Translations under genes and position numbers: made by a program
Notes under the pieces: model-generated
Database searches by the model: none
What the model was told of the DNA's origin: nothing
The model's input: the letters and a program-made list of their open reading frames with translations, nothing else
DNA from: Deltaproteobacteria bacterium
GTDB lineage: Bacteria > Myxococcota_A > Bradymonadia > REDH01
DNA length: 47,396 bases
Assembly: GCA_013205435.1 (NCBI GenBank)
Contig: JABMMX010000211.1
Coordinates: 1 to 47,396, forward strand
Direction: 5' to 3'
Part shown: positions 8,604-41,061 of the stretch, piece by piece
How the letters are laid out: every line of letters begins with the position of its first letter
Position numbering within the stretch: the first letter of the stretch is position 1

Positions 8604-9017
8604 ATGTATACCAAGGTGGACCACATCGGCATTGCGGTCCGGTCGCTGGAGGCGGCCATTCCCTTCTACCGCGACCAGCTCGGTCTGCACCTCGAGGCGA
8701 TTGACGAGGTCGCGAGCCAAGGCGTCCGCGTGGCCTTCTTCGTCTGTGGCGAGACACTGCTCGAGCTGCTCGAGCCGACCCGCCCTGACTCTCCCATCGC
8801 CATCTTCATCGAGAAGCGGGGCGAAGGGCTCCACCACATGGCGCTGGCCACCGACGACATCCTGCAGGAGCGGAGCAAGGCCATCGAGAACCGGATCCGG
8901 CTCCTCAGCGAGGCGCCGCTCGACGGAGCGCATGGCAAGCTCATCACCTTCATGCACCCCAAAGACACCATGGGAGTGCTGCTCGAGATGTGCCAGCGAA
9001 AGGCCGACCAGCACTGA
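8604..9017 (+). CDS. mce: Methylmalonyl-CoA epimerase (VOC/glyoxalase fold)
   Basis: 137 aa. Sequence reads MYTKVDHIGIAVRSLEAAIPFYRDQLGL ... GEGLHHMAL ... HGKLITFMHPKDTMGVLLEMCQ, the typical epimerase length and motif pattern. Confidence 0.85.
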   Translation: MYTKVDHIGIAVRSLEAAIPFYRDQLGLHLEAIDEVASQGVRVAFFVCGETLLELLEPTRPDSPIAIFIEKRGEGLHHMALATDDILQERSKAIENRIRLLSEAPLDGAHGKLITFMHPKDTMGVLLEMCQRKADQH

Positions 9018-9032
9018 GCAGGTGCGCCCGCG

Positions 9033-9061
9033 TTGACATCCCACTTTTTGAAGTGTTACCT
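9033..9061 (+). promoter_or_regulatory. Possible sigma70-like promoter for the downstream outer-membrane protein gene
   Basis: TTGACA (9033-9038), a 17-nt spacer, then TTACCT (9056-9061). The -10 element is weak, so this is a low-confidence call. Confidence 0.25.
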
Positions 9062-9117
9062 GCGGCGACCTGCTTGTGTCGCATCTGCGGGCGACTGCCA
9101 ATCTGGAGCAAAGAAAC

Positions 9118-12720: not shown

Positions 12721-13584
12721 CTACTTCGGCGAGGGGCCGGACCAGCCGCGGAGCGCAGCCACGCGGGACGCCCTCTGTTCGGAGGGAGGAGTCGTCATCT
12801 TGTGGCCGAAGGCGGCGGCATCCCACGAGCCATACTGCGGGTTCGGGAGCGGAATCCAACGGCTCCCCCACCAGCCAAGATAGGGCTGAGCGAGTGCGTC
12901 ACGCTCGGCAATCGCCAGCGAAATGCCATCGAGGAAATCGCCGAAGTTATCGCCGACAAGCATCACGATGCGGAACCGCTTTGCGACCTCGAGACGACGC
13001 GACCCCTTGTCAGAACCCCAACCCGGCTGCTCCTTCTTGAGCAGTACCGCGTCGACGCCATCGGCCTCCACAATCGGCACGCCGACCGCTTCGAGATTGC
13101 GCCGTGTTGCGGCCTCGCAGGATGCATCACGATTCGAGATGTAGACTGGCGTGATCCCCTGGGCCACGGCGCCGAGCAGGAACTCACGGGCGCCGGGGAT
13201 GAGGATGGCCTCACCCGCATCACACCAGGCAGCCCAGGTCTCGGGGGCATAGCTCTGCCCCGTCTTGATGAGCCAGACCTGGTAGGCGCTGTTGTCGAGG
13301 ACGGTCTCGTCGAGATCGAGCACCACGGCGGGAGGGAGAGAGGCCGCAGTCGTCTGCTCCACCGCCGCAAAGACGGTGGGGTCAGCGGCGAGGCTCGGAA
13401 GCGCAGCAGCAGCCTGAACAAAGGCAGCCCTGGTAACCGCTGCGAACTCCACAGAGGTCTGGGTCCAGAGGAGCGAAAGCGTGCCGTCAGCCTGGGAGGG
13501 CGCGGGCGGCACAACAGCCTGCTGCGGTGCGGCACAGGCCGAGAGCGAAGCGGTCGTGAGCAGCAGGACGAGCAGGTTGCGCAT
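12721..13584 (-). CDS. Class C acid phosphatase / 5'-nucleotidase, lipoprotein e(P4) family (HAD superfamily)
   Basis: Lipoprotein signal MRNLLVLLLTTASLSAC. HAD motif I VVLDLDETVLDN. ISNRD and the C-terminal GDNFGDF are characteristic of e(P4)/class C phosphatases. The start lies 2 nt after the stop of the upstream PLD gene. Confidence 0.85.
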   Translation of the reverse strand: MRNLLVLLLTTASLSACAAPQQAVVPPAPSQADGTLSLLWTQTSVEFAAVTRAAFVQAAAALPSLAADPTVFAAVEQTTAASLPPAVVLDLDETVLDNSAYQVWLIKTGQSYAPETWAAWCDAGEAILIPGAREFLLGAVAQGITPVYISNRDASCEAATRRNLEAVGVPIVEADGVDAVLLKKEQPGWGSDKGSRRLEVAKRFRIVMLVGDNFGDFLDGISLAIAERDALAQPYLGWWGSRWIPLPNPQYGSWDAAAFGHKMTTPPSEQRASRVAALRGWSGPSPK

Positions 13585-13586
13585 GG

Positions 13587-15551
13587 CTAGGGGGCTCCGA
13601 CGCCGGAGGAACGGAAATCGGCCGTTTCGGGCGCGATGAACTCCCCGCCGCTGTTGGGCTCGCCGGGTGTTGCGATGATGTAGGACTGGAAGGCGGCGTT
13701 AACGTTGGCGCCGCCCGTCGGGGCGCTGCAGGCGCGCCAGGCTGAGGACGAGTCGCCGGCGGTGAAGCGGTCACACGGTCCCGTTGCCGACGAGCAGTCA
13801 TTGTGGATGCGCTCCATCGAGATGTTCCGCGCCGGGGTGCCGGAGGCTTCGCGACCGCCATAGAAGGCGGGGCCGCCGTCGCCGGCCCGGTCGAACTCAG
13901 TGCCGCGGGGGTCGAGCAGCCGGAGCCGGAAGTCGAGGTTGTGGAGCGACAGCCGCAAGAAGCGCGGGTCGTTGGCCACGTTCATGATGAAGTCGGCGTT
14001 GCGATAGGCCGAGACCTCTGTCTGCGGGACGCCGTCCTGAAAGGGCGCCATGTTGTGGTCAACCACAAGGAAGCGCTCGCGCGGTCCGATGATGGTTCCC
14101 GGGTAGAAGCCCAGCACAAAGTCCTCGTCCGTGGCGACGGTCCAGAGCGAGATATCGATGGCCTCGTCGGTCGTGTTCAAGAGCTCGATGAACTCGTCAT
14201 TATAGACATCGTCGCCACCGGCGTCGGTGGGGTCAATGGTGCCGTTGTAGCCATCCCACTGGATCTCGTTGAAGATGATGTCGCCGGCCGCGAGCGAGGT
14301 GCCATCGCCAGCATATCGGTTGCCCGCCAGGTCACCCTCCGCGTAGAGTTGCTCGAACTGCTCCACATAGAGCGCAGTCAGTCGCTCGCCGTGAAGCACG
14401 AGAAGGGTCTCGTCGTTCGAGCCGGTCGCGCTTGACGACCAGTTGAAGGAGCCCGTGCAGACCTTCGCCGTCGGCAGGCCTCCATCTACAACAACCGTCT
14501 TGTCGTGCTGTCGAGCGCCACCGGCCTGATAGTCGCCAGGCTGGCCGGCGTTCTCGTTGCCGTCGAGGACGACATCGACGCCCGCGGTCAGCAGCCGGTA
14601 GAACTCGTGGTAGGGCCCGTTGGAGTGCAGCTGCGACCGATCGACAACGCCCTGGACCACCCTCCGCGCGAAGGGCGCAGTGCCGCAGGCGTGAAGCACG
14701 CGGTGTGCCTCGGCCGCGCCGGCCTGCCCTGCCCCATCGACCAGCACGGGGTTGAGCGCAGGATCGCAGAACTGGTTGTAGGCCGAGAACTCACGGTGCT
14801 TGGCGATGAGCGCCGAACCCACCGAGTCTTTCGTGAAGGCGAAGATGAAGAAGCGGACCGAGCCCTGCGCGTCGTTGATGGTCTGTAGCAGGCCACCAAG
14901 CGCATCTTCCTGCGGCGCGAAGCGGACCTCCACCCGGGTGTCACCGACGTTGTAGCTCTCGCCATTTTCGAGCCTGACCTTGGCCGCCCCGAAGCGGCCT
15001 GCGAACATCTGGTCGAACTCGGCCGTGAAATCACGCGCGACGGCCGGCGAGTCGATGATGACCCAGGCGTTGTTGTCGCGGTCGAAGCTGTTGCTGGTGA
15101 TGTTGCCGGTCCCCACAAACACACGCTGTCCATCGACGATGAAGAACTTGTTGTGCATGATGTGGTTCTGGTTTCCGGCCTGCATCGGGATGTTGAGCCG
15201 GTCCATGTCGAGGTAACCGCCAGTGTAACCGGTGTTGCTCTTGGCATCGCCGACGACACGCACGCGGACGCCTCGATTGTGGGCGCGGATGGCGGCATCG
15301 ATCACGGTTCGGCGGCTGAAGCCGTAGACGGCCATGTCGATCGAAACGCGGGCGCGGTCGAGGGTCTGCACCAACACGTCGTCGGTGTTGGCATCGGAGC
15401 CGGTCTCGGTACGGGTGGCCGGGCTGTTGAAGTAGACATCGATCTGCGAATTGGCCGCCTGCGCGACATCGGCCTCATCAGGCGCGATGGCACAGGCTGC
15501 GAACAGCGCGAAGAGGGGCGCAATCAGCGCGAGGATTCGTCGATGATCCAT
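13587..15551 (-). CDS. Secreted phospholipase-D-superfamily enzyme (two intact HKD motifs, nuclease-like) fused to a C-terminal lamin-tail domain
   Basis: Signal peptide MDHRRILALIAPLFALFAACA. HKD-1 is H133-N-K135-FFIV-D140 ...GTGN. HKD-2 is H349-D-K351-TVVV-D356 ...GSFNWS. The C-terminal ~230 aa match the LTD pattern (IIFNEIQW...DEFIELLNTTDEAIDISLWTV...ISMERI). Confidence 0.8.
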   Translation of the reverse strand: MDHRRILALIAPLFALFAACAIAPDEADVAQAANSQIDVYFNSPATRTETGSDANTDDVLVQTLDRARVSIDMAVYGFSRRTVIDAAIRAHNRGVRVRVVGDAKSNTGYTGGYLDMDRLNIPMQAGNQNHIMHNKFFIVDGQRVFVGTGNITSNSFDRDNNAWVIIDSPAVARDFTAEFDQMFAGRFGAAKVRLENGESYNVGDTRVEVRFAPQEDALGGLLQTINDAQGSVRFFIFAFTKDSVGSALIAKHREFSAYNQFCDPALNPVLVDGAGQAGAAEAHRVLHACGTAPFARRVVQGVVDRSQLHSNGPYHEFYRLLTAGVDVVLDGNENAGQPGDYQAGGARQHDKTVVVDGGLPTAKVCTGSFNWSSSATGSNDETLLVLHGERLTALYVEQFEQLYAEGDLAGNRYAGDGTSLAAGDIIFNEIQWDGYNGTIDPTDAGGDDVYNDEFIELLNTTDEAIDISLWTVATDEDFVLGFYPGTIIGPRERFLVVDHNMAPFQDGVPQTEVSAYRNADFIMNVANDPRFLRLSLHNLDFRLRLLDPRGTEFDRAGDGGPAFYGGREASGTPARNISMERIHNDCSSATGPCDRFTAGDSSSAWRACSAPTGGANVNAAFQSYIIATPGEPNSGGEFIAPETADFRSSGVGAP

Positions 15552-16723
15552 TGCGCGACCTGCCGGAGGAGGGGGTGATTGGAGGTGCTCTGTTCCGCGA
15601 TGGCCCAGGCGTTGCTGTCGAAGAAGGTGTCGCAGGGGCGCGGCTCAAGGCCGGCTGCGCCCGTAACGTAGGGGATGGTCTCGATGAAGGGCTGGCTCGG
15701 CACGAACATGGTCGCCGGCCCCTGGGTGCCGTCGAGCGCCGAGGGCTCCGCATCGATGATAAGAGCGTTGAAGCCCACATTGGGGCGCCGGACCACCTTG
15801 GCGTTGGGGCTCGGCGTATTGGGGTCTGCGATGCCGCCCTCGAGCCGGCTCACGCGGCTGCCCACGGCATCTGCGCCGCCTGCATCAACGACTACCTTCA
15901 CCGTGAAACCTGCCGCAGCCTTGTAGCGGAGGGCGTCTACGAGCTCTTTGTTGTAGAGGCCGCTCGTCGCCAGATAGACCGAGGAGCGAGCCGCGTAGAT
16001 GCGGTCGATGGCCTCCTTGATGATCGGCTCCTGCGGCCCGAACCAGGTGGAGAGCACCGAGCCGTCCTGCATCGGCATGCGGGTCCGGTTGTTGGTATTG
16101 GAGGGCATCGGCTCACCGTAGGAGGTGACCGTGGTGGCGAAGACGCCGCCAAACATCTGCTGGAAGGCGCCCGTGAAGTCCTTCGCGAGATCTTCGGAGG
16201 TCATCAGGTTGTAGAGCTGCGCTCGGACGCCGCTGGCGATGACCGGGCCGCTTGAGGCGACGAAGACGGTCGCGCCGTCAACCACCATGAAGTTGTGCGA
16301 CATGCGGTTGTCGTCGCTGCCACGCAACATGGAGATGCTCGGCGAGGGAGTCCAAGCCAGCTGGCCATCGCCGAAGGCCATCGGTATCCTAGCGGCCCGG
16401 AGTTTGGTGAAGCCTGCCTCTCCGCGGCGATCTTCGTCGCCCACAACGCGAACCGCTACACCGCGCGCTGCGGCAGCGATGATGGCCTCCGCGGATTTCT
16501 CATCGTCGAAGCCTTCCACGGCCAAGTCGATGGAGCGCTTGGCAGCGTTGACCTGCGCGATGAAGACCGTCTGCACGGTAAGCGCCGCCTCCGCAGAGGT
16601 TGCGGGCGGAACGAAGGTGACCGCGTAGCGATCAAAGAGCTCCGCTTCGGCCGGCGGGGCATCCTGCGCGCAGCCCCAGAGCGCGACGCTGAACAACAGC
16701 GAGGTAACAAGGTTTGGTCTCAT
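15524..16723 (-). CDS. PLD-like lipoprotein with both HKD motifs degenerate (probably non-catalytic)
   Basis: Lipobox FSVALWGC. The two-lobe PLD-like layout resembles the downstream gene. Motif 1 reads SHNFMVVDG...ASSG (Lys missing, one residue shorter). Motif 2 reads GFNALIID (His to Gly, Lys to Asn). The 3' end overlaps the next gene by 28 nt. Confidence 0.65.
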   Translation of the reverse strand: MRPNLVTSLLFSVALWGCAQDAPPAEAELFDRYAVTFVPPATSAEAALTVQTVFIAQVNAAKRSIDLAVEGFDDEKSAEAIIAAAARGVAVRVVGDEDRRGEAGFTKLRAARIPMAFGDGQLAWTPSPSISMLRGSDDNRMSHNFMVVDGATVFVASSGPVIASGVRAQLYNLMTSEDLAKDFTGAFQQMFGGVFATTVTSYGEPMPSNTNNRTRMPMQDGSVLSTWFGPQEPIIKEAIDRIYAARSSVYLATSGLYNKELVDALRYKAAAGFTVKVVVDAGGADAVGSRVSRLEGGIADPNTPSPNAKVVRRPNVGFNALIIDAEPSALDGTQGPATMFVPSQPFIETIPYVTGAAGLEPRPCDTFFDSNAWAIAEQSTSNHPLLRQVAQWIIDESSR

Positions 16724-16724
16724 C

Positions 16725-17567
16725 TCAATCCTCCGCGCCAGAAGAGATGATGCCTGCGTAGTCCGGGCTGTTCGGCAGTCCGGGCGTGGCGAAGGTGAGA
16801 GGCCGGTAGGCCTCGGCGATGTTCACACGGAGCGCATCGTGAAGCCGCGGACCGGTCGCCGGTGCGAGGTCGAAGTCGTTGCCCGAGTAGGAGTGCCAAC
16901 TGCCGTCGACGCTGCCGGAGTTTCCAAAGAGGCTCTGCGAACGCTCCATGGAGCGAGCCGTGACAAGGTCCCAGGAGCCGGCAAAGCGCTCCTTATGCAG
17001 GTCGCCCATGCCTTCGATGATCCGCTCGTCGATATCGTAAAGGTCGATGGAGAAAGCCCCGTCGGGGAACTCCAGGTCGGGCACGAGGTAATCGGCCGTG
17101 GGGAAGGCGCCGTCGGCCCGCACAGCGATGACTGCATACTCATTGGGCTGTAGCGGGCGACCGCTCCGCGGGGCGGGCAACACGTAGGTAACCGTCGCAT
17201 CGGTGCGGAACAGGTAGTCATCCGGGAGCCGGTCGCGGTTGGGCGACGAACGGACCGTGATGCGCCAGCCCGTGAGCCAGATGGGACGCGGGTGCTTGTT
17301 CTGCACCTCGATGAAGATGTCGTCGGCGTAGTGAACGCTCGCCGAGAGCGGCCCCTCTACAGAGCCGGCCCAGTTCACCTCGGAGATCATCATGTTACCG
17401 CGCTCGCCACTCGACGTGTAGGAGGCGCTGCCTTCGCTGTCGGTGACGCGCACGCCTGACCGATAACCGACCGAGAAGCCGCTCGTCTCCTGGCGGTTAT
17501 CGAGCGAGCAGCCGGAGCTCAGAAGACCGAGGCTGAGCAGCGTGAGAGGTAGGGACTTGGTGAACAC
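16725..17567 (-). CDS. Lamin-tail-domain (LTD) lipoprotein
   Basis: ORF 16725..17606 trimmed to the in-frame GTG at 17567 (VFTKSLPLTLLSLGLLSSGC lipobox), leaving 7 nt after the upstream stop. LTD pattern: MMISEVNWAG...DDIFIEVQNKHPRPIWLTGWRITV...SIDLYDIDERIIEGM...SMERS. Confidence 0.7.
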   Translation of the reverse strand: MFTKSLPLTLLSLGLLSSGCSLDNRQETSGFSVGYRSGVRVTDSEGSASYTSSGERGNMMISEVNWAGSVEGPLSASVHYADDIFIEVQNKHPRPIWLTGWRITVRSSPNRDRLPDDYLFRTDATVTYVLPAPRSGRPLQPNEYAVIAVRADGAFPTADYLVPDLEFPDGAFSIDLYDIDERIIEGMGDLHKERFAGSWDLVTARSMERSQSLFGNSGSVDGSWHSYSGNDFDLAPATGPRLHDALRVNIAEAYRPLTFATPGLPNSPDYAGIISSGAED

Positions 17568-17574
17568 AGGCGCC

Positions 17575-19245
17575 TCAGAAGCTGAGTTCGGCGCTGACGC
17601 CCACAACGGTCATTGGCTCCGAGCCGCCCAGCGCGGTGTCGTCGCCGTCGACGATGCGGTCGACCTCCACCTCGTAGAAATTGTCGGGCAGGAAGATACC
17701 ACCGACGGCCGAGAGCTTGAGCTCATCGATCCGGTGCGACAAGACCGCCTCCCACTCCGTTCCGAGCGCCTTACCGAGCCGCTTCTGAGCAGCGATTTCG
17801 GCGCGCGAGTAACCGTAGGGCGGCTCAGGGATGAGTTCAAACGCGCCGAAGTTCACAAAGGTGTGGCTCGTGTCCCGGTAGTTCCATCCGCTCACCTTGA
17901 TCGAGGTCTCGCCGATGGTGGCGATGATGGTGCCCGAGACAAACTCGGTACCTGCCGTGCGCGACTGCTGCTGCGGGCTGCGGTCGAGACCGTCGGGCGC
18001 GAGCGAGGCAGAGGGGCGCCAGCCGGCCAGCCGGCCAATCGCAACGCCGCCGACCTTTGAGCCGCGGAATCCTGTGAACCCGCCGTTGAATTCCATGCCG
18101 TTCGAGTCGTGGTCGGCACCATCGAAGTGGTAGAAGGAGCCGCCCATCTCGAGCAGCACCGACGAGAGAGGGAGCGAGAGGTCGATACCGGCACCGAAGG
18201 CGTTGCCGTCGGTCTTCACCTCATCGTAGGCGGCAACGAGCGCCTGCCGGTCAGCGCCCTGCGACATCGCGCCCTCCAGATAGGCGCCTAGAACCGCAGC
18301 GCCGGCCGTTTCGAGGTCTCCGTCTCCGCCGATCTCCAACTCCCACGCCGCGCGAGCGCCGTAGAGGTTCTGGTAGTCGCCGTCGGAGAAGTTCCCGAGC
18401 TGACCGCCGTAGCTGATGTCTGCGCCGGTACCCGTGTAGTCCGAGCCGCCGATGCCGGCGAAGAAGTAGTAGGCGCCGAGGTCGAGACGCTGAGCAGCCG
18501 TCTTGATTGTGCCATCGTAGGCCAGGCCGGACCGGTAGGTGTAGTTGTCGCCGTCGAAGCCAAAGGTGGTCTCGCGACCCGTCGTATACCGCGTGTATCC
18601 GGCTTCGGGCAGCTCCTGACCTGAGAAGAAGTCGAAGGGTACAAGCCGCAGCCGGCCCGCCGAGCCGAGCCCAATGGTGGCGACAAGGCCGTCGACGCTG
18701 CCGGACATGATGTAGTCCTTGGGCACGCCGCCGATCGAGAAGGGCTGGCGACCCATGGAGAGGTCGGCGCTGACGCCGTCCTGCTCGAACAGGCTGACGC
18801 CAAGCGACAGGCCGTAGAGGCTGACGATGGCAGTGGGCGAGCTGTTAAGAACAAAGGCGGGCCACTGGGTCTCAATCTCGCCGTCGAGCGTCAGAGAGAG
18901 CCGGTCCGATGGCCGTGCGACGATGTGCGCGCCGGCGTCCGAGTAGCCGAACATCGACTTGTCGTCGGTGTCTCGCACGGTCGCATCGCTCGAACCGTCG
19001 AAGGGGCGGAGGTCGAGGTTGTTGTAACCCTGGACCAGGCTCGAGGCGCGGAAGGTTACCTCGTAGTTGAGTGCCGTCGAGGCGACTGCTGCCGGCTCGC
19101 TAGGCAGCTCGGCAAGCGGCTCCGCCGCCGCCTCTTCAGCAGAGGCGGGCGCAGGAGCTTGGCCCTCATCCTGCGCCGAGGCGAAGGCGGGCGCGGTGGT
19201 GCAGAGGAGCAGAAGCGAGAAGGTGATGGACGATTGATGCGCCAC
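17575..19245 (-). CDS. Putative outer-membrane beta-barrel channel
   Basis: The ORF track starts at a TTG at 19260. The in-frame GTG at 19245 is preceded by GGAGG at 5 nt. A signal peptide ends ...APAFASA|QDE. The body is Gly/Tyr/Phe-rich with alternating strands. The C-terminal ...VGVSAELSF ends in Phe. Confidence 0.65.
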   Translation of the reverse strand: MAHQSSITFSLLLLCTTAPAFASAQDEGQAPAPASAEEAAAEPLAELPSEPAAVASTALNYEVTFRASSLVQGYNNLDLRPFDGSSDATVRDTDDKSMFGYSDAGAHIVARPSDRLSLTLDGEIETQWPAFVLNSSPTAIVSLYGLSLGVSLFEQDGVSADLSMGRQPFSIGGVPKDYIMSGSVDGLVATIGLGSAGRLRLVPFDFFSGQELPEAGYTRYTTGRETTFGFDGDNYTYRSGLAYDGTIKTAAQRLDLGAYYFFAGIGGSDYTGTGADISYGGQLGNFSDGDYQNLYGARAAWELEIGGDGDLETAGAAVLGAYLEGAMSQGADRQALVAAYDEVKTDGNAFGAGIDLSLPLSSVLLEMGGSFYHFDGADHDSNGMEFNGGFTGFRGSKVGGVAIGRLAGWRPSASLAPDGLDRSPQQQSRTAGTEFVSGTIIATIGETSIKVSGWNYRDTSHTFVNFGAFELIPEPPYGYSRAEIAAQKRLGKALGTEWEAVLSHRIDELKLSAVGGIFLPDNFYEVEVDRIVDGDDTALGGSEPMTVVGVSAELSF

Positions 19246-19262
19246 GAGGGCCTCCAGCAAAA

Positions 19263-20294
19263 TCAGAAGATTGACTCAATTTGACCGGTACGGACCACCC
19301 ACTGCTGCAGGCCGCCAAACCCGGAGACAACCGGCGCGGTTACGGAGATTTGCGAACCGAGCCGCACCTTCACGCCGCGGCGACCGAGCTCCTGCTCGAG
19401 GCTCACATTCCAGCAGGCGGTGGGCAGAAGGTCGACGTTGAAGGAGGCGCCACCGGCACAGGCCGCCGGGCAGATGCGATCCACGCAGAGCGTGTTTGCC
19501 GTGTCGGAAGGGCACTTGGCTCGGCAGGTGCCTGCGCAGTTCTCACGGCAGACAGCGGTTGAGGCGCCCTCGCCGACCTCAGGAAGGGGCCGGTTCGACA
19601 CCACCATCGCGTTGAAGTTCGAGCTCGTCGGCTCCTGAAGCACGTAGCCGCTGACCCGCAACGTCCGGCCGAGGTCGGCGTCCGAAAAGGCGGCATCAGA
19701 GGCCGTGTAACGCACCTCGGAGGTGCCCTCGAGCTTCTCTGTGTCGGAGATGACCACATACTTCTGGCCCGGGTAGGGCTCGATCAGGCCGCGCACTGTG
19801 AGTCGCACATGGTCGCCGAATTTGAACTCCGAAACGCGACCGTCGCGCAGAACAACGATGCCTCCCGTGTCATCCTCAACCACGAACGAGGCGTAGAAGC
19901 GCTCGTCCTGGCCGCAGACCGGAACCTTCAGATACTTTTGAGACGCCAGCGAAACGACGCCCGTGATGGTCATCGGCAGGCGAGGCGAAGTGGAGATCGA
20001 ACTACAGACATCGCCGGCCGGCTCATCGCCCGCACCGACGAGGAAGTCGGAAGCGGAGGAGCCAATCAGGTCGAGCAGGTCTGCAACCCCCGAACCATCG
20101 CCGACAGGCAGACCGTACCGCTGCTCCACGCGACCAGAGCCCTCGCCCGTGAAGCGGGGCGCAAAGGCCACCGGCTCCTCGATGAGATCGGCCGAGCCCG
20201 CAGCCTCCCGGTTGTCGAGCGTCGGCTCATCCCACTCCGCCGCGCAGGCCGAGAGGGATGCCGCCGCGACGAGCGCGCTCGCCAGCCACCTCAT
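19263..20294 (-). CDS. Lipoprotein with OB-fold-like module(s) and a C-terminal Cys-rich segment
   Basis: ORF trimmed to the ATG at 20294 (MRWLASALVAAASLSAC). This start overlaps the upstream stop as TAATG. The module ITGVVSLASQ...FYASFVVEDDTGGIVVL...GDHVRLTVRGLIEPYPGQKYVV resembles the OB-like barrels of ExeM/NucH-type nucleases. Eight Cys lie in residues 249-294. Confidence 0.6.
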   Translation of the reverse strand: MRWLASALVAAASLSACAAEWDEPTLDNREAAGSADLIEEPVAFAPRFTGEGSGRVEQRYGLPVGDGSGVADLLDLIGSSASDFLVGAGDEPAGDVCSSISTSPRLPMTITGVVSLASQKYLKVPVCGQDERFYASFVVEDDTGGIVVLRDGRVSEFKFGDHVRLTVRGLIEPYPGQKYVVISDTEKLEGTSEVRYTASDAAFSDADLGRTLRVSGYVLQEPTSSNFNAMVVSNRPLPEVGEGASTAVCRENCAGTCRAKCPSDTANTLCVDRICPAACAGGASFNVDLLPTACWNVSLEQELGRRGVKVRLGSQISVTAPVVSGFGGLQQWVVRTGQIESIF

Positions 20295-21304
20295 TACTGA
20301 GCCGTCCAAGACCAGTCGAAGTTGGCAACGTTGATCTGCGGCGCGCCGTCGAACTGGCTGAGCGGACCGACGAAGGTCACACACTGACCGATCGTGAGGA
20401 AGCTGCTGGCGCTGCGGTAGAGCGCCACCTGGCCATTGGCGTAGGTGAGGTCGTAGCACTTGGAGGAGCCGCCGCAGGCTGCGCCGCCACCCGTCAGCGT
20501 GCCCTCGACCCGGACGACTTCGCCGATGTCGGCTGAGGTCAGCGCTGTCGCGGTCCGCTCGAGGACGTGCACGCCGGTGTCGGCCTCCACGAGCTCCCAG
20601 CTGTTGGCGGCCTGAACTTGGCCCGAACCGAAGTAGCTATCGACCGCGGTCACAACGAAGTTCAGCTTGTGGCCGACGCGAATCTGCGTGACCGGAACAT
20701 TTGCGGCATTGGTGAAGTCGAGGCGAACCTCAACCGTCCCGTTGGAGTCCGCAACCCAGAAGTTCGACTGCGACGGAGGCACCGCAGCCGTGTTCATGTA
20801 GGAGGTTGCCACGACGATCGCGCCCGTGATGACGACCGGCGTCGGCAGGATGGTGGGGTCGCCGTCCACGGTGGGGAACTGCGAGATGACCTCGTCGATG
20901 TTGGCGTCGCCGTAGGTGAACTCGCTGCGGTTGTTCACAAAGAGCGGAACGCCGCCGCTCGGCGCATCGGTGCCAAAAATCTGGCCTGAGTAGGCAGGGG
21001 CGCTGCCGCACACATAGCCGTCCGCGGTATCACCGGCGGTGTCTGCGGTGGTGTCGGGGTTGACCGTCGTGTCTGCGGTGGTGTCGGGGTCGACCGTCGT
21101 GTCTGCGGTGGTGTCGGGGTCAATGGAGGTGTCGTCGGTCGTATCCGTCGTCGCGCCCGTGTCAGAGCCAGCCGTGTCGGGCCGGCCCGTATCGGTCACG
21201 GTGCCACCACCATTGGAGCGCGCCGGGTCTTCGGAGCCGCTGGAGCAGGCGACAAGCGCGAGGAGCGAGAGAGCGAAAAGGGGACGAAGAGAAGCGGTAT
21301 GCAT
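20294..21304 (-). CDS. Lipoprotein with a long Asp/Thr-rich repeat linker and two OB-fold-like modules
   Basis: ORF trimmed to the ATG at 21304 (MHTASLRPLFALSLLALVAC). The linker contains DPDTTADTTV repeats. Modules: VVITGAIVVATSY...NFWVADSNGTVEV...VGHKLNFVVTAVDSYFGSGQV and IGEVVRVEGTL...IGQCVTFVGPLSQFDGAPQI. Confidence 0.6.
   Translation of the reverse strand: MHTASLRPLFALSLLALVACSSGSEDPARSNGGGTVTDTGRPDTAGSDTGATTDTTDDTSIDPDTTADTTVDPDTTADTTVNPDTTADTAGDTADGYVCGSAPAYSGQIFGTDAPSGGVPLFVNNRSEFTYGDANIDEVISQFPTVDGDPTILPTPVVITGAIVVATSYMNTAAVPPSQSNFWVADSNGTVEVRLDFTNAANVPVTQIRVGHKLNFVVTAVDSYFGSGQVQAANSWELVEADTGVHVLERTATALTSADIGEVVRVEGTLTGGGAACGGSSKCYDLTYANGQVALYRSASSFLTIGQCVTFVGPLSQFDGAPQINVANFDWSWTAQ
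21041..21121. repeat. 30-bp tandem repeat, ~2.7 copies, inside the CDS
   Basis: gtctgcggtggtgtcggggtYgaccgtcgt at 21041-21070 and 21071-21100, plus a partial copy at 21101-21121. It encodes (D/N)PDTTADTTV on the minus strand. Confidence 0.9.
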
Positions 21305-21498
21305 GGTCGGCCTGAGTGGGCGGTGATTGCTGGGTAGGTTGCGCTGCGGGGGCGCTGCAGAGCGGCGATTTCGAGGCACGCACGCGCGTGCTGCTCCGCT
21401 AGGCCACGGCCCTTCGTTCGTCAACCGCCCGCGCCGTTTGAGGCATCTGTCGCACCCTGCTAGGTGGCGCGTTCCCCGCGGCCACTCAGACAGGTCCT

Positions 21499-22521
21499 AT
21501 GCAGACACCCATACGTTACACGCTCCCCCTGCTCGCGCTGCTCGCGCTGCTCGCCGGCTGCGCAGCGCAGGCCGATCCCGCACGCGACAGAACAGGCGGT
21601 GGCAGCGACACGGGAACGCCACAAACCGATGGCGGAGACCTCGACACCGGCGCCGCAGATACCGCAGCAGACACCAGCGCAGACACCACGCCAGCCGGTC
21701 CGACCATCGAGATCGCCACCTGGAACGCAGCCCGCTTCTTCGACCGCGTCTGCGATTCAGGCCGGTGCGATGCGGGGCAAAACGACTACGAGGAGCTGCC
21801 CTCCGCCGCGCAGTTTCAGTACAAGGCATCCCAGCTCGCCACCGGCATCACCCGTCAGGATGCCGACATCATGCTCCTGCAAGAGGTGGAGTCGCAGGAC
21901 TGCATCGATGCCCTCATCGCCGCCCTCCCCGCCGGCCGCTGGCCCGTCGCCGTGCTCGGTGAAATGGGGCAGGATGCCTCTGTCGATGTCGCCGTCCTAG
22001 CCAACGGAGAGCTCGTCGATGTCATCCGCCACCGGAGCGTCTCGCTGCCGCTTCCCGGTGGCGGTTCGACCACCTTCACGCGCGAATTCCTCGAGGTAGA
22101 ACTCCTCATTCAAGGCCGGCCCGTCACGGTCTTCACTGCCCATTTCCGCTCCAAGAACAACGACGACCCGGCCCGCCGGCTCGCAGAGGCCCGGGGCGCA
22201 GCAGCGATCGTCGCAGCCTCCGCCGCCGCCTCTCCGGACTCCCTCGTCGTGCTCGGCGGGGACCTCAACGACACCCCGGACTCGGAGCCGATGCTTGCCC
22301 TCACCTCGCCGGGCATCCTCGTCCGCGTTGCGGCAGACATCGTCCCCAACGACTGGACCTACGCCTTCAACTCACAGCGGGATGCCATCGACCACCTGCT
22401 CATCGCAAACACCGCTTCGGGCGGCTACGTGGCATGCTCTGCGACTGTGCTCCGCGACGCGACAGGCGGCCTCAATACCTCCGACCACGCATCGCTGCGG
22501 GCCAGTTTCTACCTGCCCTGA
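21499..22521 (+). CDS. Endonuclease/exonuclease/phosphatase (EEP) family lipoprotein, probable secreted nuclease
   Basis: Lipobox LLALLAGC plus an acidic D/T/G linker. EEP motifs: IEIATWNAARFF, LLQEVES, GGDLNDTPDSEP, DHLLI, SDHASLRASF. Confidence 0.8.
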   Translation: MQTPIRYTLPLLALLALLAGCAAQADPARDRTGGGSDTGTPQTDGGDLDTGAADTAADTSADTTPAGPTIEIATWNAARFFDRVCDSGRCDAGQNDYEELPSAAQFQYKASQLATGITRQDADIMLLQEVESQDCIDALIAALPAGRWPVAVLGEMGQDASVDVAVLANGELVDVIRHRSVSLPLPGGGSTTFTREFLEVELLIQGRPVTVFTAHFRSKNNDDPARRLAEARGAAAIVAASAAASPDSLVVLGGDLNDTPDSEPMLALTSPGILVRVAADIVPNDWTYAFNSQRDAIDHLLIANTASGGYVACSATVLRDATGGLNTSDHASLRASFYLP

Positions 22522-25316
22522 GGGGGCGCCACGCGCAACGATGGCACCTTCTCCACGGGGATTTCTCCGCGCATAACGGCCTCAATCTGCGCGGGGGAGA
22601 TGGGGTAACCGCCGCGAATCGCAACGGGCTCGCCCTTCTCCTTCGCATATTGCAGGTAGGCCTTCCAGTTCGCCTCAAAGGCGGTGAACTCCTCCTCCGC
22701 CTCCTCTTCACGCTCCTCGGCAAGCGCCTCGATGCGACCGGTCGCAGCAGCGCGGACCACGCCCGCGGGAAGCGGCCGCTCGCCGCGCTCGATGCGGGCC
22801 TGAGCCTCCGCGCGCGAGATGCGTCCCATCTTCCAGAGGCGATAGTTCTGCACCACGGTGCCTAGCTCCTTGTTCCGGTCGGGTCCGGAGAAGTCCATTG
22901 CCATCGACTCTCTGACGCCCGGCGTCTTGAGGTCGCGGATCTTGTCTTCGGGGATGATGCGGGGCTTGACCACGTAGGGGGAGTAATCGGGCACGCCCGT
23001 GAACATGTCCCACATGGGCGACGCCATCGCGTCGGGGCGACCCATCGGCGGTACGCCAAGGATGCGGGTCATGGTCGCGAAGACCGACTGGAAGGAGTAG
23101 TTCACGAAGCTGATGTAGCCGCGCTTGGCCCAGGGGCTGATGACGAAGGCGAAGACGCGGTGCGAGTCGACATGGTCCTCGCAGCCCTGCGGGTCATCCT
23201 CGACGACGAAGATGGCGGTCTTCTTCCAGTACTCGCTCTGTGAGAGGCCCTCGGTCAGCCGGCCGATGGCGAAGTCGTTGTCGGCCACCTGCGCCTCGGG
23301 CGTGGGGTTACCGGGGGTGGTGCCGCCCGTGTGGTCGTTCGGCATCAGCATGTAGGTGAACTTTGCCAGTTTACCCTGGCTGATCTTGCGGAGCACATAC
23401 TCGGCCCGATCGGTGTCGCGCACGCCCATCGAATAGAAGAAGCCGCCGGGGTAGGCCCGGTCCGAGAAGGCGAAGGGCTGGCGACCGTCTGCAGCGCGGC
23501 TGAACATGCCGGTGATCTCGCCGTAGACCTGAATGCTGATGTCCCGATCCATGAGGTGGGTAAAGAAGCTGCCGTTGGTCGGGGTGGTTGTCGCCGCCAC
23601 CTGATAGGCATCGAACATTCCGCTGCGATCCGACTCGACCCAGGACCGCTCCACGAAGTCATTCAGGAAGCCGGCGGTGAGCATGATGTGGCCCATGTCG
23701 GAGTCTTCGACCTCGTCGTAGAAGTTTGCGGAGAAGGCGAACTCATCGACGAAGGCATGCTGGTTCGGCGTGATGTCGCGGCCCCAGACAACCAGGCTCG
23801 GGTCGACGTTAAGCCCACGGTCCGAGATGTCGCCGAAGACACAGTCCAAGGTCTTGTTCTCCTTCACGACGAGGATGACATGCTCAATCGGGGTGTAGTC
23901 GCCCGGGTTGACCGGGACGGGGAAGAAGTCGTCGCACTCGACCGGGAAGGTGGTCAGGGAGCGGAGGTCGTTGGAGACGACCTGCGCTGTGGTGGCAGCG
24001 ATGTCGAGACCCTCGAGCGTCACGAAGCTGACGCTGCCGTCCATGGCCTCCTTGGAGGAGCGGCCTAGGCTGGGGCCACTTCCAAAGCCCTTGCCCTCTG
24101 CGACGATGAGCTTCTGACCATCGGGGGTGACAGCGCTTCCCGCAGGGTACCAGGCCGTGGGCATCGAGCCGATGAAGGAGAGGTCGGAGGTGGCGAGCAC
24201 CGAGACGGCGTTGTCGACGCCACGGGTTACGTAGAGGCGGCTGCCATCGGGCGAGACTTCCACGTCGTTCACGTTGCTGCGAAGCAACGGGGTGCCATCG
24301 TTGGTGAGAACATCCGACTCCACCACGCGGACCCGCTTGCTCACAGACCAGTCAGAGACCCGAACCTCGACAAGTTCATCAGCGCCGGAGACCGCAATCC
24401 AGAGCTTGCTACCGTCGGGGGAGGCCTGCATGCCCATGGGGCCGCGACCCACATCCACTGGCTCGCCGACTTGGCCCGTCACGGTATCTACGACCTGAAT
24501 GTCGGAGGTGACATGCGACGAGACGACGATGGTCTCGGTGCCGGGGATTCGTTCCACATCCCATACACCAGCGGAGATCGTGTAGGTGTTGGCGACGGCC
24601 TCCGGGGTGCCGAGGCGGGTGGTGTCGAGCGCGAGCAGGCGGCTGCCCTCTGCCTCACCGACATAAAGGCGGCTGCCATCCGCCGAGAGGGTCATACCCG
24701 AGGTAACGATGGGGAGCTCAGTGCTCACAGCAAGCGCAATCTCGCCGGTGGTGGCGTTTACGTCGAAGGCATCGACCCGCTTGGTGGACCCCGACGCGAC
24801 GAAGAGACGAGAGCCGTCCGCCGTCAGCGCGAGGCCGTAGTAGGCCTCATCAAGAGAGACGTCCTGAACCACCAAACCGTCGACGGTGCTCATCACGAGG
24901 ATGCGCCGGTCGTCGATGCTGGTGCTCAGCACGAAGACCACCGGGAGTGTGGGGTGGACCACCAGGTTGGAGGGGAAGCCGGGAACAGGGGTGGTGATAC
25001 CGGGCGAGCTCAGGCGGCGGCCGCCGAGGCCAACAATGCCGGAGCCATCGTTGGCGCCTGCTTCCAGTTTCGCAGCCTCGGTAGGCTCGGGGGTGCAGAC
25101 TACATCGGGGACAACCCATACATCTTCGGTGCCGCTTCCGTCGGCGCTGCCATCCGAAGTATCGAGGGTGCCCGAACCGTCGGCGCTGCCTTCCGAGGTA
25201 TCGCTGGCATCTCCACTACCGGTACCGGCGTCGGTGATCTCGGCGGTCTCCTTGTCGTCGCCACAGGCAAGGAGCGACCCAGAGAGGAGCAAGCAGAGGA
25301 GGGGCAGGTGTCTCAT
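22509..25316 (-). CDS. Lipoprotein fusion: YVTN/YncE-type beta-propeller plus phosphoesterase (PlcN/AcpA-like) domain
   Basis: Lipobox LLSGSLLAC plus an acidic linker. Repeated blades: DGSRLFVAS, DGSRLYVGE, DGSKLWIAV, DGSRLYVTR, DGQKLIVAE. The C-terminal half has IEHVILVVKENKTLDCVFG, MLMPNDHTGG and VVEDDPQGCEDHVDSHRVFAFVISPWAKRG, typical of the phosphoesterase family. Confidence 0.8.
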   Translation of the reverse strand: MRHLPLLCLLLSGSLLACGDDKETAEITDAGTGSGDASDTSEGSADGSGTLDTSDGSADGSGTEDVWVVPDVVCTPEPTEAAKLEAGANDGSGIVGLGGRRLSSPGITTPVPGFPSNLVVHPTLPVVFVLSTSIDDRRILVMSTVDGLVVQDVSLDEAYYGLALTADGSRLFVASGSTKRVDAFDVNATTGEIALAVSTELPIVTSGMTLSADGSRLYVGEAEGSRLLALDTTRLGTPEAVANTYTISAGVWDVERIPGTETIVVSSHVTSDIQVVDTVTGQVGEPVDVGRGPMGMQASPDGSKLWIAVSGADELVEVRVSDWSVSKRVRVVESDVLTNDGTPLLRSNVNDVEVSPDGSRLYVTRGVDNAVSVLATSDLSFIGSMPTAWYPAGSAVTPDGQKLIVAEGKGFGSGPSLGRSSKEAMDGSVSFVTLEGLDIAATTAQVVSNDLRSLTTFPVECDDFFPVPVNPGDYTPIEHVILVVKENKTLDCVFGDISDRGLNVDPSLVVWGRDITPNQHAFVDEFAFSANFYDEVEDSDMGHIMLTAGFLNDFVERSWVESDRSGMFDAYQVAATTTPTNGSFFTHLMDRDISIQVYGEITGMFSRAADGRQPFAFSDRAYPGGFFYSMGVRDTDRAEYVLRKISQGKLAKFTYMLMPNDHTGGTTPGNPTPEAQVADNDFAIGRLTEGLSQSEYWKKTAIFVVEDDPQGCEDHVDSHRVFAFVISPWAKRGYISFVNYSFQSVFATMTRILGVPPMGRPDAMASPMWDMFTGVPDYSPYVVKPRIIPEDKIRDLKTPGVRESMAMDFSGPDRNKELGTVVQNYRLWKMGRISRAEAQARIERGERPLPAGVVRAAATGRIEALAEEREEEAEEEFTAFEANWKAYLQYAKEKGEPVAIRGGYPISPAQIEAVMRGEIPVEKVPSLRVAPPQGR
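25138..25202. repeat. 39-bp period direct repeat (2 copies) in the linker-coding region
   Basis: ccgtcggcgctgccWtccgaRgtatc at 25138-25163 and 25177-25202. It encodes TS(E/D)GSADGSGT(L/E)D twice. Confidence 0.8.
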
Positions 25317-41001: not shown

Positions 41002-41061
41002 TTTGTCTCCGCAGCCGAAGGTGTTGTAGGGGGGCGGCACACCTTGTGAGGTCTGCTCGAA

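Follow-up and report, generated by a model that had tools for sequence, protein, structure and literature searches.

A conserved six-gene cassette of uncultured myxobacteria with a probable role in the use of extracellular nucleic acid

The window examined here, a stretch of DNA 47,396 nucleotides in length, contains a real, conserved and previously unstudied gene cluster of uncultured myxobacteria. Its conserved unit comprises six genes, encoding two tandem-OB lipoproteins, a barrel, an LTD lipoprotein, an apparently dead PLD and a double-HKD PLD-LTD protein, and it is most likely that this cassette captures, cuts and takes up extracellular nucleic acid. As a whole explanation, we consider it probable that the cassette is a chromosomal PUL-like nucleic-acid utilization module of Bradymonadia/Myxococcota. 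In the window, seven tightly packed genes (G1 to G7) fill positions 12721-21304 of the minus strand, and a gene for an EEP-family protein diverges from G1. A sequence-only reading of the same DNA had given these coordinates and junctions correctly.

21305-21498, no strand: intergenic region of 194 bp that separates the divergently oriented G1 and EEP genes, presumed promoter region (from coordinates)
20294-21304, minus strand: G1, lipoprotein, 336 aa (lipobox LVAC; G2-family profile match)
19263-20294, minus strand: G2, predicted tandem-OB lipoprotein, 343 aa (lipobox LSAC; AF2 and Foldseek)
17575-19245, minus strand: G3, predicted outer-membrane 18-strand beta-barrel, 556 aa (AF2 and Foldseek; SPI-type signal)
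16725-17567, minus strand: G4, stand-alone LTD lipoprotein (hhalign against the G6 C-terminus; Pfam LTD below cut-off)
15524-16723, minus strand: G5, PLD-fold lipoprotein, predicted catalytically dead (PLDc_2; HKD lysine missing)
13587-15551, minus strand: G6, double-HKD PLD with C-terminal LTD (PLDc_2 twice, LTD)
12721-13584, minus strand: G7, class C acid phosphatase/e(P4)-like 5'-nucleotidase lipoprotein (PF03767, TIGR01533)
21499-22521, plus strand: EEP-family lipoprotein, predicted accessory nuclease (PF03372, PF19580, NF033681)
22509-25316, minus strand: lipoprotein with beta-propeller and PF04185 phosphoesterase of PLC/AcpA type (PF04185, propeller repeats)

The packing is operon-like, as had been proposed, with junctions that run from a 28-nt overlap to a 17-nt gap, and the cassette genes may be co-transcribed. 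G1 and G2 overlap by 1 nt (TAATG at 20294), and the junctions G4/G5, G5/G6 and G6/G7 are +1, -28 and +2 nt. Between G2 and G3 the distance depends on the start codon of G3, +17 nt with GTG 19245 and +2 with TTG 19260; the former start has GGAGG 5 nt upstream and yields a protein with the length of close homologues. Likewise, G3/G4 is +7 nt with a G4 start at GTG 17567 and -32 with TTG 17606. The 194-bp intergenic region has no match to the sigma-70 consensus, and its sequence is kept only in close relatives. The upstream regions of 13 species hold no common motif, and no promoter, terminator or common regulatory motif was found for the cassette.

All products of the seven genes and of the divergent EEP gene carry a signal peptide or lipobox, another feature that the earlier reading had recognized. 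Six of the seven, plus the EEP protein, are lipoproteins. The lipoboxes of G1, G2, G7 (LSAC) and the EEP protein (LAGC) are canonical, and G4 (LSSGC), G5 (LWGC) and G6 (FAAC) have lipobox-like cysteines behind a hydrophobic stretch. The remaining protein, G3, starts with a cleavable-type signal that ends in AFA-SAQ, and its C-terminal residue is an invariant Phe. The lipoproteins would be held at the envelope, on either its surface or its periplasmic face.

Conservation was assessed among 37 species-level MAGs, all Myxococcota/Bradymonadia-like and of 57-73% GC; all cassette carriers are uncultured MAGs. Every sufficiently long locus in these genomes has the fixed order G1-G2-G3-G4-G5-G6, down to 27% barrel identity, and this recurrence means that the grouping is more than chance. 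Cassette contexts looked at independently gave the same picture. G4 is kept in all loci. G1 is present in 28, this window included, and gave no match at E 1e-5 in about a dozen, mostly of the most distant clade and including some truncated loci. A distant barrel relative in a MAG of 38% GC again adjoins a double-HKD PLD lipoprotein, and this pairing is a sign of an older association.

The genes around this core are far less constant. Of the seven-gene operon described earlier, the order of G1 to G6 is conserved and G7 is not: its orthologue adjoins the cassette in L008 alone, a near-identical relative. The cassette is accompanied by the EEP gene in L001/L002, L007, L008 and L017 only, and the PF04185 propeller-phosphoesterase is kept only in the close relatives L007 and L008. 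These three genes are add-ons specific to this lineage. In L001, the cassette adjoins genes for adenosine deaminase, UPRTase, a phosphoribosyltransferase and an ExbBD/TonB-dependent receptor set, and the flanks in other species are heterogeneous, with no enrichment for nucleotide or phosphate metabolism genes.

The component that appears to be the invariant catalytic element of the cassette is G6. It matches PLDc_2 twice (133 bits) and LTD above cut-off (40.5 bits), and the window protein and 29 of 29 aligned orthologues retain both HxKx4D...G[ST]xN motifs. Its PLD domain seems closest to the nuclease clade Nuc/Zucchini/NucT: the best NCBIfam model is NucT (65 bits), and the closest solved structures are Zucchini/MitoPLD (4h4a, 1.9e-13), Nuc (1byr, 1.8e-11) and NucT (6ehi, 4.8e-9). 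G5 matches PLDc_2 at 53 bits and lacks the HKD lysine in the window and in all 31 aligned orthologues, which suggests a catalytically dead protein. The cassette is built from internal duplications. G5 shares 30% identity with the PLD half of G6 across 218 aa (E 3e-17). The G4 family profile aligns with the C-terminal LTD of G6 over 176 columns (hhalign probability 99.6%, E 7.5e-25), and Pfam LTD itself scores G4 at only 20.9 bits. Similarly, alignment of the G1 and G2 family profiles covers approximately 94 columns of the OB region (probability 96%, E 5.5e-9).

G2 is putatively a nucleic-acid-binding partner of the barrel. Its AF2 model (pLDDT 88, pTM 0.83) retrieves tandem nucleic-acid-binding OB proteins in Foldseek, among them an RPA-DNA filament (8oej, 2.3e-5), POT1, SSB and the HIN domains of p204/p202/AIM2/IFI16, including 4jbm. 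Weak and recurrent matches to Pfam DUF5689 reach 17.4 bits in the window protein, which is under the Pfam threshold, and are found in 6 of 47 family members at E<=0.01 and 8 of 17 at E<=0.1; DUF5818 also matches. The second OB domain holds a Cys-rich insert with eight invariant Cys that is missing from distant orthologues. G1 has an acidic low-complexity linker followed by one or more OB-like domains, and has no match in Pfam.

For G3, the AF2 model has 18 long strands and is of moderate confidence (pLDDT 69, pTM 0.71). The best Foldseek matches are AlgE (3rbh, 3.7e-13), MOMP, chitoporin and OccD/OprD, and neither Pfam nor NCBIfam gave a match, distant members included. The model thus suggests an outer-membrane AlgE/OprD-like barrel of a family without annotation, which has only 182 representatives in 1.84 billion proteins. 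Its likeness to the polymer and oligomer channels AlgE, chitoporin and OprD would support a nucleic-acid function. However, a crude estimate of the lumen-facing residues is net acidic (20 D/E versus 11 K/R, with 66 acidic and 33 basic residues in the whole barrel), whereas the pore of AlgE is electropositive, and this is awkward for a polyanion channel. Structure models and Foldseek therefore uphold the OB and barrel assignments of the sequence-only reading for G2 and G3, and homology to G2 does so for G1; HMM scans support its LTD, PLD, EEP and e(P4) assignments, with hhalign supplying the LTD of G4.

The proteins encoded in or next to the cluster point the same way as a nucleic-acid substrate. 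G7 matches PF03767 (Acid_phosphat_B, 128 bits) and TIGR01533 (176 bits, under the equivalog cut-off of 216), and carries the motifs DLDETVLDN and GDNFGDF. The EEP protein matches PF03372 (Exo_endo_phos, 50 bits) and PF19580 (34 bits), has an SDH motif at its C-terminal end, and scores 53.5 bits with NF033681 (ExeM_NucH), in an alignment limited to model positions 227-495; its catalytic domain seems most like that of ExeM/NucH. The PF04185 protein (51 bits), whose gene overlaps the EEP gene by 13 nt at their 3' ends, is a possible further local accessory.

Given these components, G1 and G2 would sit beside G3 at the outer membrane and bind DNA or RNA there, and G6 would cut the polymer. G4 and G5, as split non-catalytic paralogues of G6, might be extra substrate-binding or scaffolding subunits, and the products may form a physical complex. 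G3 would pass oligonucleotides or nucleotides to the periplasm, or hold the complex at the membrane. In this lineage, the EEP protein, the e(P4)-type 5'-nucleotidase and the phosphoesterase could take digestion down to nucleosides and phosphate, and the purpose is perhaps nutritional, namely phosphorus or nucleoside scavenging, possibly from prey. The earlier proposal of a pathway that handles extracellular nucleic acid at the envelope remains the best-supported reading; tethering of the proteins to the surface, import by way of the barrel and co-transcription are parts of it that we infer. The acidic lumen estimate, the moderate confidence of the G3 model, the heterogeneous flanks elsewhere and the lack of an inner-membrane transporter or TonB system in the cassette all count against this explanation.

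PLD-superfamily sequence alone would give no basis for choosing nucleic acid over phospholipid. An alternative that we judge unlikely is that the cassette scavenges or attacks phospholipid, or some other phosphodiester polymer, from prey or the environment. G6 would then act as a phospholipase D or as a phosphodiesterase of teichoic-acid or polyphosphate type, a non-nucleic polyanion would be the ligand of the OB and LTD modules, and head-group or oligomer products would be imported through the barrel. Bradymonadia are known predators, which we count in favor of this alternative. The PLD superfamily includes true phospholipases, one of which (7e0m) matches the HKD region of G6 at E 3.3e-9, about as well as NucT. 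The PF04185 neighbor is a member of the PLC/acid phosphatase family, genes for a PF01663 phosphodiesterase and a glycerophosphotransferase lie near the cassette in L004, and the estimated lumen is acidic, not basic. However, over its full domain G6 matches the nuclease clade, with cardiolipin synthase at only 17.7 bits, the structural neighbors of G2 are all nucleic-acid binders, and an ExeM-like EEP protein and a 5'-nucleotidase-type phosphatase are the accessories encoded locally. The DdbD-like placement of a lipoprotein beside a transporter also matches a DNA system (PMC12478041).

It is also quite unlikely that the barrel is a translocon or anchor that takes the cassette lipoproteins to the surface by a Slam-like logic, with digestion outside the cell and entry of products by unrelated porins. 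The many lipoproteins would need surface exposure to meet an extracellular polymer, the cassette holds neither an energy source nor an inner-membrane transporter, and the lumen estimate argues against nucleic-acid passage. Against this, the closest folds are 18-strand substrate channels (AlgE, ChiP, OprD) rather than the 14-strand Slam/DUF560 barrel, domain search and model revealed no periplasmic TPR or POTRA-type domain in G3, and a minimal trio with PLD and barrel in L042 suggests that enzyme and channel are coupled. Such a role is in any case compatible with a nucleic-acid substrate. Finally, a DNA-uptake device for natural transformation, whose nucleases process incoming DNA instead of feeding the cell, is suggested by the predicted DNA-binding fold of G2, by a likeness to the DdbC/DdbD homologues of Riemerella anatipestifer, where such proteins are essential for transformation (PMC12478041), and by NucT, a PLD nuclease implicated in both transformation and purine salvage in H. 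pylori (PMC5714352), but it is very unlikely given that the cassette and the flanks scanned have no competence genes (ComEA, ComEC, DprA, pilus), that a monomeric 18-strand barrel would be narrow for duplex DNA, and that the 5'-nucleotidase and phosphoesterases added in this lineage point to complete degradation.

The nucleic-acid utilization module that we favor had been described as a disassembled ExeM/NucH nuclease. ExeM does combine an LTD, an OB-like stretch and an EEP domain, as was stated, and LTDs occur in both DNases ExeM and Xds (PMC6085458). However, the EEP protein, the sole part with sequence similarity (53 bits against a 300-bit cut-off), lies outside the conserved core, G1 and G2 have no detected similarity to the ExeM/NucH model, and the core enzyme is an invariant PLD, so this framing is not supported. 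The closest described system is the ddbABCDEF DNA-utilization locus of gut Bacteroides, which combines nucleases with an outer-membrane transporter and a DNA-binding DUF5689 lipoprotein, DdbD, and which is required for DNA depletion (PMC12478041; PNAS 2025). The model of DdbD resembles the p202 HIN domain (PDB 4JBM) (PMC12478041), and G2 has both the weak DUF5689 matches and the 4jbm match. Both systems would place a putative DNA-binding lipoprotein beside an outer-membrane barrel or transporter, together with nucleases. They differ in that the putative transporter of the cassette is an AlgE/OprD-like barrel rather than a TonB-dependent one, and in that its predicted core nuclease is a Nuc/Zucchini-like PLD. 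The sequence-only reading knew of no system with this composition; that holds for the composition itself, which is without described precedent, whereas a functional analogue has been published in the ddb locus (PMC12478041).

The gene array that runs down the minus strand from 21304 to 12721 probably holds, in its conserved part, a nucleic-acid utilization module of Myxococcota that is known from uncultured MAG genes alone. We favor this reading because several lines of evidence regarding the substrate converge and because the genes are laid out in the manner of the ddb locus and of polysaccharide-utilization loci. The array comprises seven tightly packed genes, the first six of which are called the cassette here, and a divergent gene lies beyond its upstream end:

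G1, 20294-21304, minus strand: OB lipoprotein, with an OB assignment made only through hhalign to G2
G2, 19263-20294, minus strand: OB lipoprotein
G3, 17575-19245, minus strand: barrel
G4, minus strand, most likely starting at GTG 17567: LTD lipoprotein
G5, minus strand: dead PLD protein
G6, minus strand: double-HKD PLD-LTD protein
G7, minus strand: e(P4)-like phosphatase
EEP gene, 21499-22521, plus strand: lipoprotein gene, separated from G1 by a divergent intergenic region of 194 bp

An ORF listing of the window and an examination of the N-termini bear out what the sequence-only reading had observed regarding the seven genes and the EEP gene, namely their coordinates, junctions, and export signals. 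G1 and G2 overlap by 1 nt (TAATG at 20294), G4 and G5 are separated by +1, G5 and G6 overlap by 28 nt, and G6 and G7 are separated by +2. The gap of +17 between G2 and G3 is likewise recovered when G3 begins at GTG 19245, which is its most likely start as judged from a GGAGG 5 nt upstream and a resulting length of 556 aa that equals that of close homologues. With G4 beginning at GTG 17567, the gap between G3 and G4 is +7. A hydrophobic N-terminal signal is present on all seven products and on the EEP protein. Four proteins (G1, G2, G7, and EEP) carry a canonical lipobox, whereas G4, G5, and G6 each have a lipobox-like Cys. In G3, the signal is of the signal-peptidase-I type, and the last residue is an invariant Phe.

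A scan for sigma-70 promoters returned 0 sites and terminator-like sites occur at chance level (5 seen, 5.2 expected). The tight junctions are therefore the sole sequence evidence bearing on co-transcription of the cassette genes, which they suggest. The divergent intergenic region is alignable among close relatives only, and 7-mer enrichment upstream of G1 in 13 species was not above that of shuffles; thus, no Pho-box-like element was found there. In several distant-clade members, genes for ECF-type sigma factors directly adjoin the cassette (8724-9293 in locus L031 and 18237-18833 in locus L025), and these factors may provide dedicated regulation. The sigma factor gene of L031 lies between G2 and G3, with G2 displaced ~3.4 kb upstream.

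The flanking genes have housekeeping functions (PFK, Mur ligase, amino-acid kinase, PhoH, and MazG) and the GC content of the window is uniform at ~0.64-0.68. The cassette is therefore chromosomal, and a mobile element or island was rejected on these grounds. Anti-phage defense was also rejected because PADLOC gave only generic DrmC-type PLD similarity and because all products are exported. Scans for tRNAs and Rfam families across the window revealed no RNA genes. The genes for the MazG-family nucleotide pyrophosphohydrolase and the PhoH-like ATPase (40150-41040, minus strand, and 43094-44272, plus strand) are ~20 kb from the cassette and are probably housekeeping genes. Tail-to-tail with G7 is a pair of plus-strand genes (9076-12697) that encode a TIGR04551-family outer-membrane protein (321 bits) and then a TPR lipoprotein whose match to PF24575, the model for the N-terminal TPR of Slam, is weak (29 bits) and under the cut-off. 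This pair, which is kept in L008, a locus of the window's own lineage, could handle lipoproteins or could be an outer-membrane pair that has nothing to do with the cassette.

Scanning a single genome from each GTDB species with a pattern yielded 37 cassette loci, all of them in MAGs (37/37) with 57-73% GC. These genomes are labeled Bradymonadia, Myxococcales, Myxococcota, or 'delta proteobacterium', apart from a few obviously mislabeled bins. By tblastn with the window proteins, the order G2-G3-G4-G5-G6 is identical wherever a locus is long enough to judge, even where barrel identity has fallen to 27%, and independent gene calls in relatives agree. G1 precedes these five genes in 28 loci, including the window. 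G7, in contrast, adjoins the cassette in L008 alone, a locus with ~86-97% identity over its whole length; the EEP gene is confined to L001/L002, L007, L008, and L017; and the PF04185 protein encoded next to the EEP gene is confined to the closest relatives, L007 and L008. Gene order is thus conserved for six genes but not for G7 or the EEP gene. The seven-gene operon that had been proposed must accordingly be reduced to a six-gene core, with the phosphoesterases as additions of the window's lineage. Furthermore, among 80 ORFs in the flanks of 26 loci, a Pfam census revealed no recurrent phosphatase, nuclease, transporter, or other accessory family, and therefore a 'terminal nucleotidase' step is not a general feature of the system.

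Among the additions, G7 matches PF03767 above its cut-off (128 bits) and has both a lipobox (LSAC) and DDDD motifs. It shares this fold family, these motifs, and the lipobox with lipoprotein e(P4) of Haemophilus influenzae, but its score against TIGR01533 (176 bits) is below the 216-bit equivalog cut-off. The EEP protein belongs to the endonuclease/exonuclease/phosphatase superfamily, as judged from its match to PF03372 (50 bits, with a cut-off of 24.5 bits) and its C-terminus, '...NTSDHASLRASF', with the catalytic SDH motif. A PDB sequence search with this protein gave nothing useful. The PF04185 gene (22509-25316, minus strand) encodes a 935-aa lipoprotein with a beta-propeller and a phosphoesterase (PLC/AcpA-type) domain, and its 3' end overlaps that of the EEP gene by 13 nt. 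In a more distant locus, L001 (16477-21306, 48% barrel identity), genes for adenosine deaminase, UPRTase, and a phosphoribosyltransferase precede the cassette, which is followed directly by genes for ExbB, ExbD, a TonB-like ORF, and a CarboxypepD_reg+Plug TonB-dependent receptor.

The enzymatic center of the cassette is G6, which matches PLDc_2 twice (133 bits) and also has an LTD (PF00932) at 40.5 bits, above the 34.3-bit gathering score. Its HKD motifs are HNKFFIVD at residue 133 and HDKTVVVD at residue 349. Both HxKx4D...G[ST]xN motifs are kept in the window protein and in all 29 of the 29 aligned orthologues, as expected of a catalytically competent member of the PLD superfamily. The best NCBIfam model is NucT at 65 bits, for which the cut-offs are 211-351. 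The nearest solved structures to the PLD domain are Zucchini (1.9e-13), Nuc (1.8e-11), and NucT (4.8e-9), all aligned over the full domain length. We also considered that the cassette serves phospholipids or other phosphodiesters, and a true PLD (7e0m) likewise matches the HKD region of G6. However, G6 scores only 17.7 bits against cardiolipin synthase. Action of G6 on DNA or RNA rather than phospholipid is thus putative, given that PLD chemistry is not assignable from sequence.

G5 retains the PLD fold (PLDc_2, 53 bits) but the HKD lysine is missing in the window protein and in 31/31 aligned orthologues, which marks it as a predicted pseudo-enzyme that is consistently inactive. That this dead protein has been kept over wide divergence implies that it serves in binding, scaffolding, or regulation rather than in catalysis. 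G5 and the N-terminal PLD half of G6 show 30% identity (E 3e-17), and the G4 family profile matches the C-terminal LTD of G6 with a probability of 99.6% (E 7.5e-25). G4 plus G5 are therefore a split copy of G6 in reversed order. The families of G1 and G2, in turn, align in an OB region (hhalign probability 96%, E 5.5e-9), and three duplications in all (G1/G2, G5/G6 PLD half, and G4/G6 LTD) underlie the cassette. Regarding the domain assignments made in the sequence-only reading, PLD, EEP, class C phosphatase, and the LTD of G6 exceed their Pfam or TIGRFAM cut-offs, whereas the LTD of G4 (20.9 bits) falls below. Predicted structures agree with it for the tandem OB protein G2 and the 18-strand barrel G3.

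The model of G2, built from a 47-sequence alignment (pLDDT 88), is a tandem OB protein, and its Foldseek neighbors are all nucleic-acid binders: an RPA-DNA filament, POT1, the HIN-200 domains of p204/p202/IFI16/AIM2, and SSB. Foldseek probabilities against RPA, POT1, and HIN-200 are 0.97-0.99, and single OB domains align with TM values of 0.5-0.6. The matches include 4jbm (p202 HIN). The modeled protein thus has five-strand OB barrels like those of DNA/RNA binders, and nucleic-acid binding is its putative function. G2 of the window also matches DUF5689 (PF18942) at 17.4 bits (E 0.004), below the 28.6-bit gathering score. Such sub-threshold matches recur in the family (6/47 members at E<=0.01 and 8/17 at E<=0.1). 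When a set of 5.8 billion proteins was searched with a profile of the G2 family, matches were confined to Myxococcota and included no annotated DUF5689 proteins. No family was found for G1 in Pfam or NCBIfam, and PDB sequence searches with the G1 and G2 profiles gave nothing useful.

Within the second OB domain of G2 (residues ~240-290) is a Cys-rich insert (CxxxCxxxCxxxC...C...C...C) with 8 invariant Cys. Members of the Bradymonadia-like clade have it, whereas the orthologues of the distant clade, which are shorter (~280 aa), lack it. Perhaps this insert is a disulfide-stapled or metal-binding helical hairpin. In G1, the linker that follows the lipobox (residues ~25-95) is a hypervariable acidic low-complexity repeat, of DTTADTTV type in the window and (GE)n, (PEGQ)n, (NND)n, or (GGA)n in orthologues of other species (loci L011, L012, L014, L015, and L016). 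It looks like a long flexible tether that keeps the OB domain off the membrane.

The G3 model has 18 long strands (pLDDT 69, pTM 0.71), and its closest folds in Foldseek are AlgE (E 3.7e-13, target-normalized TM 0.63), Campylobacter MOMP, chitoporin, and OccD/OprD. Channels of the AlgE, OprD (Occ), and chitoporin kinds are monomeric and move linear polymers or oligomers. G3 resembles them in predicted strand number and overall fold, but there is no detectable sequence relationship, and the alginate, amino-acid, and chitin genes of those systems are not found near G3. Pfam and NCBIfam yielded no family for G3, and Pfam scans of ten distant relatives were equally negative. Clustered at 90% identity, the barrel family comprises 26 clusters among 5.8 billion proteins, and it has 182 representatives in a set of 1.84 billion. 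Unlike AlgE, which is electropositive, G3 has lumen-facing residues that are net acidic by a crude estimate, which would be at odds with a simple electropositive pore for polyanions. We also considered that G3 translocates or anchors lipoproteins. Over the whole barrel, acidic residues strongly predominate (66 D/E, 33 K/R). After its first strand is an invariant Asp-rich segment (residues 81-100, NxDxRxxDxxxDxxxxDxDD) that a DNA-channel model leaves unexplained; it is speculation that the invariant Asp of these first loops (D83-D100) may bind cations.

A distant barrel relative (24% identity over 469 aa) is encoded in a MAG of 38% GC (GCA_014238275.1; L042, 4363-8660, and L043, 5182-9479). There, a minimal set of three genes encodes a double-HKD PLD lipoprotein (446 aa, lacking an LTD), a 492-aa lipoprotein of no recognized kind, and then the barrel; in L042, the 492-aa protein showed no relation to G1 or G2. 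Pairing of PLD and barrel thus exists outside Myxococcota without OB or LTD proteins, and so it arose before the Myxococcota cassette did.

Nucleic acid as the substrate is suggested by the DNA-binding fold neighbors of G2, by the alignment of G6 with a nuclease clade, and by the occurrence of LTD modules in the DNases ExeM and Xds (PMC6085458). It is also consistent with the add-ons in the window's lineage (an ExeM-like EEP protein, an e(P4)-type nucleotidase, and a phosphoesterase) and with the L001 neighbors for nucleobase and nucleoside metabolism and for ExbBD with a TonB-dependent receptor. The sequence-only reading had envisioned capture, cleavage, import, and dephosphorylation of extracellular DNA/RNA, an idea that is still reasonable once three points are changed: the size of the operon, the relation to ExeM/NucH, and the supposed lack of a counterpart. 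We infer lipoprotein topology, complex formation, and transport for these products. A far bolder proposal, which we regard as doubtful, is that G1 and G2 cap G3 and that the three together are a TonB-independent translocon of the outer membrane, through which strands of nucleic acid or oligonucleotides are threaded into the periplasm as the PLD-LTD complex cuts them. If true, this would be a third, convergent route for DNA across the outer membrane, beside PilQ/ComEA and the TonB-dependent DdbCD. The barrel family would then be a new class of nucleic-acid channel whose pairing with PLD proteins predates the Myxococcota cassette.

Lakes and sediments contain a major pool of phosphorus, nitrogen, and carbon in the form of extracellular DNA, and Myxococcota, including Bradymonadia, are predators that liberate the nucleic acid of their prey. 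Near-identical MAGs are present in Lakes Mendota, Zurich, and Erken. A dedicated, conserved envelope module for capture and breakdown of nucleic acid would explain part of the niche of uncultured freshwater and marine lineages, and the cassette could reveal a new outer-membrane route for such polymers. The barrel and G1/G2 families are currently unannotated, and a role for them would bring annotation to a couple of hundred protein clusters.

Among known enzymes, the N-terminal PLD domain of G6 aligns in full with Nuc (pKM101), NucT (Helicobacter pylori), and Zucchini, and the HxKx4D...G[ST]xN signature is common to all. Those enzymes are homodimers in which each chain contributes a single HKD, whereas G6 has two HKD domains and an LTD in a single chain and, unlike them, is paired with a conserved inactive paralogue. 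NucT is an envelope nuclease used for purine salvage (PMC5714352).

The cassette region also has LTD, OB-like, and EEP modules in common with ExeM, NucH, and Xds, which act on extracellular DNA. In ExeM, these modules form a single polypeptide with a GlyGly-CTERM anchor (PMC6085458), whereas in the window they are separate lipoproteins, and the EEP gene is absent from most cassettes. The best NCBIfam match of the EEP protein is the catalytic part of the ExeM_NucH model NF033681 (model positions 227-495 only), at 53.5 bits with a cut-off of 300, and G1, G2, and G4 do not match this model. Membership in the ExeM/NucH family was thus rejected, given also that no one chain combines LTD, OB-like, and EEP domains. 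A disassembled ExeM/NucH nuclease is likewise not the best description of the array, as its ExeM-like part is dispensable and the OB proteins have no sequence link to ExeM.

The closest functional analogue is the ddbABCDEF locus of Bacteroides thetaiotaomicron, which encodes three nucleases, the transporter DdbC, and the DUF5689 protein DdbD, which is reported to cap the extracellular mouth of DdbC and whose model resembles the dsDNA-binding HIN domain of p202 (4JBM). DNA depletion depends on this locus, and the natural-transformation genes of Riemerella anatipestifer are its relatives (PMC12478041); that the cassette is a transformation device was among the alternatives considered. Both loci are compact and combine secreted or lipoprotein nucleases with an outer-membrane transporter, localization and transport being predictions for the cassette. 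DdbD adjoins its transporter just as G2, with its matches to the same HIN structures and to DUF5689, adjoins the barrel, but homology of G2 and DdbD is not established by scores below threshold. Each locus also has additional non-catalytic SPII proteins that might bind substrate (DdbE in ddb; G1, G4, and G5 in the cassette). The differences are equally clear. DdbC is TonB-dependent, whereas G3 is modeled as an AlgE/OprD-like barrel of an unannotated family with no Plug or TonB_dep_Rec match in Pfam and no link to TonB, and so the cassette was rejected as a Ddb-type locus anchored by such a transporter. Moreover, the conserved nuclease of the cassette is from the PLD superfamily, LTD modules and a dead PLD paralogue are present, and the hosts are Myxococcota.

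The earlier statement that no such system had been described therefore holds for composition but not for function, for which ddb has been an analogue since 2025. A non-TonB 18-strand barrel, two tandem-OB lipoproteins, an LTD protein, a dead PLD, and a PLD-LTD protein make up a composition for which we found no description in the literature. Its layout, with binding lipoproteins beside a barrel and then hydrolases and non-catalytic paralogues, follows the logic of polysaccharide-utilization loci and ddbABCDEF. Thus, the concept of 'DNA-utilization loci' would reach beyond Bacteroidota to include a PLD nuclease, LTD modules, a pseudo-enzyme, and a non-TonB barrel, and on balance we think it likely that the cassette is an envelope nucleic-acid utilization locus of a known kind, assembled from parts that differ from those of ddb.
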